Source: a virus (Duplodnaviria > Caudoviricetes). From it: a stretch of 64,000 bases of DNA. The position numbers were made by a program, and so were the translations under genes. Position 1 is the stretch's first letter. Each line of letters opens with the position of its first letter. Below the pieces are notes generated by a model. That model was not told the origin of the DNA, ran no database searches, and saw nothing but the letters and a program-made list of their open reading frames with translations. Shown piece after piece: positions 46,783 through 49,634 of the stretch. Location of the stretch: positions 1 to 64,000 of the IMG/VR virus record IMGVR_UViG_3300001525_000272. One strand, written 5' to 3'.

Positions 46783-47004
46783 TTAGTTATAGATATAATG
46801 AACCACAAAAGAAAGAAATGGTTTTTCACAATTTAATTTCGATAAAGCAATAACTTCATCATAATGATCATCTAACCAATTCTTTGTTTTATTTTGCATA
46901 AAATGAGCAATTTCAGAATCACTTCCATCAGTTTCCCTTTGAAGTTTTCTGTATTCCTTGACTGCTTCTGCAAAACGATTAATGAACTTTAAAGTTTCGC
47001 TCAT
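46783..47004 (-). CDS. Hypothetical protein
   Basis: 73-aa ORF in a tightly packed operon. Confidence 0.5.
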   Translation of the reverse strand: MSETLKFINRFAEAVKEYRKLQRETDGSDSEIAHFMQNKTKNWLDDHYDEVIALSKLNCEKPFLSFVVHYIYN

Positions 47005-47019
47005 TTTGTAATTATTCCT

Positions 47020-47472
47020 TTAGTTTTTCAAATACTCATCATCAAGACTTTTGATTGATTCATAAGGAAGAGAACTATCTTCATCTTCTTTTACAACAAA
47101 ACCGTGACTTTCAAGCCAATGACCAAATTGATAAAAACCACTCATATCATCATAATCATTACCGACATCAACAATGATTTCCGGCTTTGACATATCTATG
47201 ATTTTAGATAACAATTCCGGTTCAGGATGATTTAAGTAATCACGGAAATTAATTTCAATAGTGTTTACTTTATAAGAATCCTTACACCAAGAATAGTTCT
47301 TAAACAACTCTTCGAATTCTTTCTTGGAATTTTCATCTTTGGCTGTAAAGCTAACTTTATTAGTAAGACGAAATGCTTTAATCAATTCTTTGAGTGTATT
47401 AAAACGACCGGTTATATCAACGATAAAACTAGAACTGCTAGAATTACTTACAAAATCACTTCTAATCTTCAT
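47020..47472 (-). CDS. NSSSSSF-motif family protein, copy 4
   Basis: N-terminus MKIRSDFVSNSSSSSFIV. Confidence 0.8.
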   Translation of the reverse strand: MKIRSDFVSNSSSSSFIVDITGRFNTLKELIKAFRLTNKVSFTAKDENSKKEFEELFKNYSWCKDSYKVNTIEINFRDYLNHPEPELLSKIIDMSKPEIIVDVGNDYDDMSGFYQFGHWLESHGFVVKEDEDSSLPYESIKSLDDEYLKN

Positions 47473-47490
47473 TATTTTATCAACCTTTCT

Positions 47491-47973
47491 TTAATTATTA
47501 TCATTTCCACCCTCAATATAAGAATCAGTATTGGATAGAAAACGAAGAAGAGTATCTTCATTAGTAAACATGTCAATATTCTGTCCTTCTGAAGAAGCAG
47601 ATTGATGATCTATATACATATAACTGGGTAGATCTTTATATTTCTTTTCTGAATCATAATAGATTGGATCAACCATTCTAATATTAAGTTTGTAGTTATC
47701 CTTAACTACTTTCTTAAGCATATCAAACCATTCATCACAATGTTCATCTGAATAGAAACATTGCATGGCACAGAAATTGAGTTTACTAAAGAAATCGCTA
47801 GTAATCTCTTCTTCCCATCCAAATTGATATTTACCATGTTCCACGTTTGGAACAATGAATTCATCCAAATCATCATTGAGTTTGGAAAGATCTTCTGTAT
47901 TTCCAACCGTATCAGCAATAACAATAAAAGAAGAACTTGAACTATTACTTACGAAGTCGTTTCTAATTTTCAT
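47491..47973 (-). CDS. NSSSSSF-motif family protein, copy 3
   Basis: N-terminus MKIRNDFVSNSSSSSFIV; C-terminal YIDHQS. Confidence 0.8.
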   Translation of the reverse strand: MKIRNDFVSNSSSSSFIVIADTVGNTEDLSKLNDDLDEFIVPNVEHGKYQFGWEEEITSDFFSKLNFCAMQCFYSDEHCDEWFDMLKKVVKDNYKLNIRMVDPIYYDSEKKYKDLPSYMYIDHQSASSEGQNIDMFTNEDTLLRFLSNTDSYIEGGNDNN

Positions 47974-48466
47974 TGTTTGTAATCTCCTCGTTCATTTTAA
48001 ACCAATCCAAATGGCTAGTTATTGTTTCATATGCAAAACCCTTATATTCAAGTAAAGTCAAAATCTGACTTATTCTGCTTAATGGGAATGAATCCCATGT
48101 TTCCATAAGTTCGATTATAACATTATTACAATTTGCAACCAATGCTATTATATCATCATTAAATGGTTCTTTGAGTACTTCGCCATTGATAAGAATACAA
48201 TACATTTGTTTACCATTCCAATTATAATCATAATGTTTATCTATCCATGATACATGATCAGTAAGATAATTTTTAATCTGATGATTATTTATCAAGTAAT
48301 TATATGCAATATCTCTAGTTTCTCGATCATACCAACAAAAGATGATATGGTGAAGATCACTAATGATTTTTCTAAACTCAACAAAGAAATCAACTAAACC
48401 TTTTTGTTTAGATATAATAAAACTAGAACTACTTGAATTTGAAACAAAGTCGTTTCTGATTTTCAT
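47963..48466 (-). CDS. NSSSSSF-motif family protein, copy 2
   Basis: N-terminus MKIRNDFVSNSSSSSFII; overlaps the next start by 11 nt. Confidence 0.8.
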   Translation of the reverse strand: MKIRNDFVSNSSSSSFIISKQKGLVDFFVEFRKIISDLHHIIFCWYDRETRDIAYNYLINNHQIKNYLTDHVSWIDKHYDYNWNGKQMYCILINGEVLKEPFNDDIIALVANCNNVIIELMETWDSFPLSRISQILTLLEYKGFAYETITSHLDWFKMNEEITNNEN

Positions 48467-48470
48467 AATT

Positions 48471-49208
48471 TTACCAAGGTTCTGTATTTAGCATTTCTAC
48501 ATTAAGACCATCAAAAACACCATGTTCTTCAGCTCTAAATCTATCTTCATCACAACCATCACCATCATAGTTCACATGAATTACATAGATCTTTTCTTTC
48601 TTATTAAGAATTCTATCTTTAATATTTTCAAATGTTAATTTATTATTATCAAATATAGAAAATTGTTTACCCAATTTCATGAGTTTTTCTGTAATGGCAA
48701 CACTATCTTCGTTAATTATATAACTACACGAATAACCACCATCTATCTTATCATATGTAAAATTATCTCTATTTTTGATATACTTGATAAGTTCATCACC
48801 TTCAAGTTCCATAATCTTTTTCATATGATCTTTTGTTACAATACGTGAATCATAACTTGGTTCTTGAACCCTAATGATTGTATGTTCATCATTCAAATAT
48901 TTAATTTTTAATTGATCTTCAGTATTAGTACTACTATCAATTTGTTGTTTACACCACTCAAACATATATACATCATCTGGATTATTTTTATCATAATCAG
49001 TAACAATATCATCAAGTCTAATATAACCAGCAAACAAAGAGACATAATTGTTTAAAATTTTAGTCATCTTTGTTTTATTATCCCAATAATCACATTTACA
49101 TTTATCACTAATATCACTAATCAAATCATTAGTGGCATAATTACTATTAGTAGAAATTAAGAAAGATGAACTACTTGAATTTGAAACAAAGTCGGATCTA
49201 ATTTTCAT
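48471..49208 (-). CDS. NSSSSSF-motif family protein, copy 1
   Basis: N-terminus MKIRSDFVSNSSSSSFLI. Confidence 0.8.
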   Translation of the reverse strand: MKIRSDFVSNSSSSSFLISTNSNYATNDLISDISDKCKCDYWDNKTKMTKILNNYVSLFAGYIRLDDIVTDYDKNNPDDVYMFEWCKQQIDSSTNTEDQLKIKYLNDEHTIIRVQEPSYDSRIVTKDHMKKIMELEGDELIKYIKNRDNFTYDKIDGGYSCSYIINEDSVAITEKLMKLGKQFSIFDNNKLTFENIKDRILNKKEKIYVIHVNYDGDGCDEDRFRAEEHGVFDGLNVEMLNTEPW

Positions 49209-49226: not shown

Positions 49227-49634
49227 TTAAATCGGACAATTTGTATTAATCCACATTCTGTTAAAAATTATGTTTTTAATACCCAGAATCTGCCATGTAT
49301 CAGCAAGTTCATGCATATCTTCTTCTGGTGTCTTTCTTAACATTAATCTAAAATAAGTATTTACCAAATCATTAGATGTTGGCAATTTGAATTGGACATA
49401 GTATTTATTATTAGTTATTGTATAATAGATATTAGATAATTCATCAGCGGGAACCTCTATAGATTCAGGTCCATCATTTATATATTTATCATCTTTACAA
49501 TAACTGATAACAAGAACATTATCAGATCTGTAATAAACATCAATAATCAAACAATTCACAAAAATGACATTTTTATCAAGATCAATTATTTTTTGAATTT
49601 TAGATTTGATTTTGTCAATGTTTGATTTCTTCAT
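49227..49634 (-). CDS. Hypothetical protein
   Basis: 135-aa ORF between queC and the NSSSSSF array. Confidence 0.5.
   Translation of the reverse strand: MKKSNIDKIKSKIQKIIDLDKNVIFVNCLIIDVYYRSDNVLVISYCKDDKYINDGPESIEVPADELSNIYYTITNNKYYVQFKLPTSNDLVNTYFRLMLRKTPEEDMHELADTWQILGIKNIIFNRMWINTNCPI

Follow-up and report, generated by a model that had tools for sequence, protein, structure and literature searches.

In T4-like phages, the internal proteins are hypervariable, are encoded in tandem arrays and share a short constant N-terminus, the capsid-targeting sequence; this leader, of about 10 residues, is a feature of head proteins and ends in the prohead-protease site L/I-x-E. In the case of the prochlorosins, ProcM serves many ProcA precursors, which join a conserved leader to a hypervariable remainder and whose genes are partly clustered and partly scattered. 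Radical S-adenosylmethionine (SAM) enzymes have a partial TIM barrel and the canonical three-cysteine motif CX3CX2C for the SAM-binding [4Fe-4S] cluster, and in a three-residue cyclophane (triceptide) an aromatic-X-X motif is cross-linked by an enzyme of the radical SAM/SPASM kind. Here, an array of four genes is described in a 64,000-nucleotide stretch of phage DNA (Caudoviricetes; IMG/VR record IMGVR_UViG_3300001525_000272, positions 1 to 64,000), called the window below. The encoded proteins share a 16-residue N-terminus, the tag. We consider it probable that the four are unrelated acidic clients of a dedicated phage radical SAM/SPASM-twitch enzyme, for which the tag is the docking element and probably the site of modification too.

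The source is a viral contig of 86,183 bp (CheckV completeness 27%), consisting of AT-rich phage DNA in the window. The array and its tags are located as follows.

48471..49208, minus strand: client gene 1, open reading frame (ORF) of 245 aa, isoelectric point (pI) 4.8
47963..48466, minus strand: client gene 2, ORF of 167 aa, pI 5.1
47491..47973, minus strand: client gene 3, ORF of 160 aa, pI 4.3
47020..47472, minus strand: client gene 4, ORF of 150 aa, pI 4.8
49155..49208, minus strand: tag of gene 1, first 18 codons, MKIRSDFVSNSSSSSFLI
48413..48466, minus strand: tag of gene 2, MKIRNDFVSNSSSSSFII
47920..47973, minus strand: tag of gene 3, MKIRNDFVSNSSSSSFIV
47419..47472, minus strand: tag of gene 4, MKIRSDFVSNSSSSSFIV

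The ORFs and their alignment confirm the observation, made in a preliminary description of the window, of four adjacent genes with a common N-terminus. All four are co-directional and tightly spaced (a 4-nt gap, an 18-nt gap and one 11-nt overlap), and all four products are acidic, with pI 4.3-5.1. The shared start reads MKIR[SN]DFVSNSSSSSF and is followed by two hydrophobic residues. In the four-way protein alignment, 15 of residues 1-16 are invariant, and past residue 16 there is one invariant column, a Cys; no homology is detectable among the four bodies. The motif starts no other ORF in the 64-kb window and heads hundreds of ORFs in other phages; the tag far exceeds what chance would give. 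From one copy to the next, the Ser codons change between the AGY and TCN families. Since both codon families occur within a single Ser run in 459 of the 485 tags of related loci, selection acts at the protein level, which bears out the earlier argument from codon switching. The core of that description, in which selection at the protein level keeps an N-terminal tag constant on variable bodies that are unrelated to one another, was right.

The tag defines a large class of proteins. In 42 phage loci that hold a relative of the 160-aa gene, on contigs of 7.6 to 434 kb, the start consensus is MK[ITV]R.[GD][FY]VSNSSSSSF[IV][IV], and nearly all of these loci hold tandem runs of 2-10 tagged genes. 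Asn10 and Ser11-13 are invariant among 134 distinct tagged proteins; positions 3, 5, 14, 17 and 18 vary freely, and position 7 is Leu in 15 of 491 tags. In a set of 1.84 billion representative proteins, a tag profile of 36 positions matched 29,295 protein clusters, mostly of phages, with an E value of at most 0.001, and nearly every match starts at residue 1. Among 185,579 cellular species genomes, seven loci were confirmed (arrays of 2-11 tagged genes), all of them on metagenome-assembled contigs, and these may be binned phage DNA. A few database proteins (P0073-P0078) carry two complete tags each, the second being internal and still starting with MK.R; they look like fused neighbouring tagged genes or assembly duplications.

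The evidence for an enzyme partner comes from gene neighbourhoods. When all other ORFs of the 42 client-seeded loci were clustered, an enzyme family of ~350 aa was found inside or beside the arrays, within 6 kb, in 26 of the 42 loci seeded by the 160-aa family; the next commonest neighbour family occurs in 8 of 42. In the reverse direction, tagged ORFs, 1-13 in number, occur within 7 kb in 74 of 80 enzyme-seeded loci; they always share the strand of the enzyme, and most lie directly downstream. Ten array loci have no enzyme nearby; among these, the genomes that are at least 99% complete carry exactly one copy elsewhere in every case (6/6), at a distance from the array of 60 kb and of more than 100 kb in two of them. 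The enzyme was missed in fragments of 8-43% completeness and in one record rated 88% complete. Its carriers include phages in culture: the enzyme is encoded in 172 phage records, most of which belong to T4-like phages that infect Klebsiella, Enterobacter, Cronobacter and Citrobacter. No client is encoded within 6 kb of the enzyme of Citrobacter phage Margaery (ALF01855.1); two clients, ALF01804.1 and ALF01809.1, both starting with MKIRSGFVSNSSSSSFI, lie 20-25 kb away from it. That the tag almost always travels with one radical SAM enzyme points to a very widespread phage system.

The enzyme gene itself is interrupted in some loci: at L011:3717-5456 it is split by an intein with a LAGLIDADG endonuclease (Pfam Intein_splicing, E 7e-11), and in L010 and L013 it appears in pieces. 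In phages of 400 kb, a P-loop (GTQNTGKST) protein, whose C-terminal part is YbiA/NADAR-like by eye, is encoded just upstream of the array at these positions.

L001:4370-5587: P-loop protein
L002:133-1350: P-loop protein
L004:4100-5305: P-loop protein
L025:4188-5399: P-loop protein

The contig under study has its own copy of the enzyme.

83,739-84,989 of the contig, minus strand, outside the window: radical SAM/SPASM enzyme of 417 aa (E 1.9e-102)

This gene, at 83.7-85.0 kb, was invisible to the preliminary description because it lies beyond the window. It is 34 kb from the array and is adjoined directly downstream by two further tagged genes (172 and 183 aa; locus L043, 82436-84989), whose products start with MKTR, as against MKIR for the four in the window. 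The window array is therefore a second, remote client cluster.

The enzyme has the motif C105-x7-C113-x2-C116, of unusual spacing, and a Cys-rich C-terminus; in its relatives the motif is CX3CX2C, and the CxxC pair is invariant. Two relatives match Pfam Radical_SAM with 31.0 and 34.8 bits (cut-off 29.5), Pfam SPASM is matched with 36.2 and 27.6 bits in L016 and L042 (cut-off 21.5), and TIGR04085 is reached with a score of 30 against a cut-off of 27. Four C-terminal Cys residues are invariant across 18 enzymes, and the enzyme of this contig has more. The three-cysteine motif, the Pfam matches of the relatives and a barrel that matches those of solved enzymes place the protein in the radical SAM superfamily, and the Cys-rich C-terminal domain places it in the SPASM/twitch subgroup. 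Its AlphaFold2 model (predicted local distance difference test, pLDDT, 77.6) is closest in fold to RiPP maturases (RiPP, ribosomally synthesised and post-translationally modified peptide) of the SuiB/CteB/SkfB kind. The top Foldseek match is SuiB with its precursor peptide (5v1t; E 5.8e-10, template modelling (TM) score 0.54), next come CteB, SkfB, PqqE and TigE, and anSME (rank 23) and EpeE stand lower; by sequence, the enzyme is closest to SkfB. The short precursors of RiPP maturases are not found here, the clients being proteins of 72-309 aa. The PqqD family is absent from the family matches of the enzyme relatives, and the model has an all-beta sheet as its N-terminal domain.

A complex was predicted between this enzyme and the first 36 residues of the 150-aa protein of the window. 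The median ipSAE (interaction prediction score from aligned errors) is 0.89, compared with 0.02 for the best control. The mark of this complex is reached by 58 of 80 solved complexes and by 2 of 110 mismatched pairs, counts that hold only roughly, as our own alignments were used for the complex. The three runs have at least 80% of the contacts in common, and the pLDDT of the partner is at least 62. In the predicted complex, tag residues 1-20 are touched by enzyme residues 72-79, 95-99, 117, 146-151, 173-177 and 196-199, and further by residues 225-229, 316-322, 346-348 and 364-366. The enzyme alignment shows no variation at many of these positions, and residue 117 neighbours the cluster cysteines C113 and C116. 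The prediction thus favours binding of the tag by the enzyme, and it supports the tag as a docking element at the level of a model.

A possible course of events can be sketched from the models. The AlphaFold2 model of the 160-aa protein is confident (pLDDT 88.6, predicted TM score (pTM) 0.85), with residues 1-11 below pLDDT 50, a mean pLDDT of 77 for residues 11-20 and a strand at residues 16-18. The first 11 residues of the tag would therefore be flexible, and accessible because they are disordered in the monomer. In the complex, K2-R4 would lie against a strand of the N-terminal beta domain (predicted contacts of tag residues 2-4 with enzyme residues 74-78), and Phe7 would sit at the mouth of the radical SAM barrel, near the ends of the barrel strands (146, 173-175, 196-197, 225). 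The contacts, which continue through residue 20, would take in the Asn-Ser run and extend to the Cys-rich C-terminal domain, where residue 17 is predicted to contact enzyme residue 318. The 5'-deoxyadenosyl radical would then take a hydrogen from a tag residue, leading to a cross-link, an oxidation or an epimerisation. Most tags have [FY]-V-[ST] at positions 7-9, and Phe7 is predicted at the centre of the barrel; a cyclophane of the aromatic-X-X type could be imagined at F7-V8-S9, though the tags with Leu7 speak against it. Since the tag is all that the clients share, its modification would endow a wide range of phage proteins with a single common chemical feature, and we infer that this common modification is the point of the system.

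If so, the system may be one of general tagging in large phages, in which one radical SAM enzyme per genome places the same N-terminal modification on unrelated proteins, as many as a dozen or more, and in which the modification, and not the bodies, is the functional device; we regard this broader proposal as evenly poised. The modification could serve as a stabilising cap, as an address, or as a reactive handle that arms takeover or anti-defence proteins.

Within a locus, tags agree at positions 6, 7 and 9 with an identity of 0.89, 0.965 and 0.995, respectively, compared with 0.66, 0.81 and 0.925 for random pairs; a single reader per genome predicts such uniform positions, as does common descent. 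The tag variants also track the enzyme clades, with 9 label changes against 13.9 in shuffles. A check of enzyme columns for co-variation with tag position 6 brought out a single strong column, residue 288 (own numbering): 7 of 8 D-type enzymes have Val there, and 62 of 70 G-type enzymes have Lys; this was dropped as independent evidence, since the D-type enzymes form only two clades.

Several points weigh against the docking and modification proposed here. The docking is predicted and the modification inferred, and the chemistry cannot be read from sequence. The ipSAE is the confidence of the model itself, and since RiPP maturase-peptide complexes have been solved (SuiB-SuiA), part of the score may come from likeness to these. 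Co-occurrence of tag and enzyme stems partly from the shared ancestry of large phages, and tag variants that follow the enzyme clades are what is expected of kin. One record of 250 kb, rated 88% complete (G009), encodes a tagged member of the 160-aa family (L014:6001-6489, MKLRKGFVSNSSSASF) and has no radical SAM match; the enzyme either lies in the missing 12% or this genome is a real exception. The strand at residues 16-18 of the monomer model conflicts with a complex in which residues 1-20 lie in the enzyme; either the enzyme would need to reach the client ahead of folding, or local unfolding of the segment would be required. Finally, the occurrence of Leu7 runs contrary to a chemistry that requires an aromatic ring at this position.

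Among the alternatives, the one that survives best takes the tag as a signal for packaging or localisation, comparable to the capsid-targeting sequence of T4 and directing variable cargo into the head or elsewhere; the enzyme would then be irrelevant, or no more than a linked gene. This was also the first suggestion of the preliminary description, and its architectural part stands: tandemly arrayed genes encode hypervariable bodies behind a short constant N-terminus. Many injected or early proteins are small and acidic, as these bodies are, and the model shows disorder in the first 11 residues; the modification might itself serve as the address. Against a T4-type signal, the 18 residues of the tag contain neither an L/I-x-E cleavage site nor any Glu, and no gene for a head protease or scaffold recurs beside the arrays, whereas the radical SAM enzyme does. 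The tag is, moreover, predicted to fill the active-site barrel of that enzyme. Packaging by the tag as such is accordingly unlikely.

The bodies of the clients bear on a second alternative, in which all tagged proteins share one very divergent fold or enzyme, the tag is an ordinary strand or active-site loop, and the arrays reflect an expansion of paralogues. The four array proteins have no match in Pfam, and none of the 134 distinct tagged proteins contains a Pfam or NCBIfam domain, sulfatase included. When Pfam, NCBIfam and PHROGs were searched with the array genes and the 134 tagged proteins, the sole family found was phrog_7397, which has no assigned function. It is matched by 69 of the 134 and by all four array genes (E 1.4e-4 to 6.6e-4), which could be taken as a sign of common origin; the match, however, covers the whole length of the 160-aa protein only and is confined to the N-terminal 21 to 61 residues of the other three (residues 1-21 in the 150-aa protein). 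BLAST sorts the bodies, once the tag is removed, into at least 48 clusters of 72-309 aa. Profile-profile comparison of the body clusters tested gave three linked pairs, none joining two genes of the window, a result obtained with shallow alignments and with one body folded.

Of the client families, that of the 160-aa protein is the most widespread, with 67 other homologue clusters and a body present in 50 of about 190 fetched loci. Besides the tag, the family conserves the motifs FGWE, KLNF, YIDHQS and a C-terminal SYIxGGNDN, of which IDHQS and GGNDN are polar and enzyme-like; together with the strand at residues 16-18, in the confident part of the model, they speak for a single fold. No solved fold matches the model (Foldseek E above 1, VIA-align Z of at most 2.2 over 48,161 chains), and its structural matches are uncharacterised viral models. 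Two of the partial matches are a 461-aa 'Radical_SAM domain containing protein' of an uncultured phage (BFVD A0A6J5LQS4, rank 2, E 0.013) and a 261-aa ESM Atlas cluster with a Tad2-like domain (TM 0.58); both may be fusions of the 160-aa body with other domains. A tblastn search of the 160-aa protein against cultured phages gave no match, with the caveat that the low-complexity filter may have masked the Ser run.

The other three bodies have few relatives. The 245-aa protein has 3 homologues (28-71% identity); its body clusters with four other tagged proteins and is weakly linked to one further cluster, and its ESM Atlas model is poor (pTM 0.54) and without a known fold. The 167-aa body has only 3 homologues, with 64-76% identity. 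One homologue of the 167-aa protein and one of the 245-aa protein each come from a contig of 2,435 bp, perhaps one and the same. For the 150-aa body, tblastn found no relative in the ~190 fetched loci, and a metagenome scan for close relatives of the array returned only distant or tag-only matches.

The Asp/Asn/Gly-rich patches reported near the C-termini of three of the proteins are present, and only one of them, GGNDN of the 160-aa protein, is a motif conserved in its family. Of 417 tagged proteins, 18 contain the pattern GG[NY]D, compared with 1 of 555 neighbours and ~1% of shuffles. As this is so small a share of the tagged proteins, the patch is a feature of a few body families and not of the tag class, and it was dropped as a candidate for a second shared element. 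A minority of clients, including short ones such as ALF01804.1 of Margaery (L141:702-1169), end in an extreme C-terminal tail GGY[DN]G or GGNDN.

A single divergent fold is thus very unlikely. The preliminary description had put forward a related idea, a modified Ser-rich strand of a divergent enzyme, of which the first half agrees with the client reading, the tag being probably modified, and the second is contradicted by the 48 or more BLAST families of bodies.

A third alternative, also raised at the outset, places the function of the conserved 5' end in the DNA, mainly as a recombination anchor for the swapping of gene cassettes. The identity of 26 nt reported between the adjacent 245-aa and 167-aa genes is real (GACTTTGTTTCAAATTCAAGTAGTTC), this pair has the same codon at 11 of 16 residues as against 6-10 for the other pairs, and the apparent fusions of neighbouring tagged genes in the databases point in the same direction. 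Occasional recombination through the tag is therefore plausible. As an explanation of the conservation or of the enzyme link it is highly improbable: conservation is at the protein level, with both Ser codon families mixed within the tags, it spans phages with very different DNA, and an anchor would need neither the invariant Asn-Ser-Ser-Ser nor a co-inherited enzyme, so that recombination is a side effect at most.

The further suggestion that the four proteins are substrates of the adjacent QueC, Gat and HAD enzymes draws on the position of the array downstream of QueC without a terminator between them, and it is scarcely credible, as QueC, Gat or HAD is nearby in none of 135 other loci with tagged genes or enzyme (0/135), and the single QueC match in those loci is to its intein part.

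With regard to the surroundings of the array, the co-directional gene order is Gat-HAD-QueC-135 aa-array-73 aa-helicase, and no terminator-like sites are found between 45.4 and 52.9 kb. The flanking ORFs of 135 aa (49227-49634) and 73 aa (46783-47004) have no family match and no relative in any fetched locus. The intein of the window's QueC is the only link between QueC and the enzyme in the clustering.

If the interpretation of the tag as docking element and probable modification site is correct, tens of thousands of clusters of 'hypothetical' phage proteins gain a common handle, a tag that is read by a radical enzyme. Leader-guided radical SAM maturation would be extended from short peptides to whole proteins, and a new protein chemistry on an Asn-Ser-rich motif would be expected. 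The tag would also mark, in any phage genome, fast-evolving accessory proteins that are candidates for host takeover or counter-defence. Should general tagging hold as well, the ~29,000 clusters would make this one of the largest uncharacterised viral protein-modification systems. The system is accessible at the bench because its carriers include cultured T4-like phages, such as Citrobacter phage Margaery with its enzyme and two clients. No published description of the tag and enzyme system, motif included, was found in open-access papers and preprints.

In comparison with known systems, the T4 internal proteins differ from the clients in that the tag has no protease site and no link to head genes, and shows instead a strict link to a radical SAM enzyme. 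The anaerobic sulfatase-maturating enzyme anSME (4k36), whose substrates are folded proteins, is likewise a radical SAM/SPASM protein and modifies Ser or Cys in a short near-N-terminal motif of full-size proteins; the clients described here, in contrast, are not sulfatases, probably share no fold and lack the sulfatase motif C/S-x-P/A-x-R in their tag. The prochlorosins resemble the present system in having one maturase, many precursors with a conserved leader, and genes that are both clustered and scattered, and they differ in that the maturase is a lanthionine synthetase, the substrates are short peptides, the variable part is modified and the leader is removed. The closest likeness is to the RiPP maturases of the radical SAM SPASM/twitch type (SuiB with SuiA, the streptide system of 5v1t, CteB, SkfB, PqqE), which have the same radical SAM core and Cys-rich domain. 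There, too, one enzyme gene stands beside several substrate genes with a conserved N-terminal recognition segment, and here the peptide is likewise predicted to run into the barrel. RiPP maturases act on short peptides, whereas the clients of this system are complete proteins, 72-309 aa long, that fall into no fewer than 48 unrelated families; the system belongs mostly to phages, as the 29,295 clusters indicate, and its clients may be encoded tens of kilobases from the enzyme. Unlike a RiPP leader, the conserved segment begins at residue 1, is modelled within the barrel, and may itself be the part that is modified.

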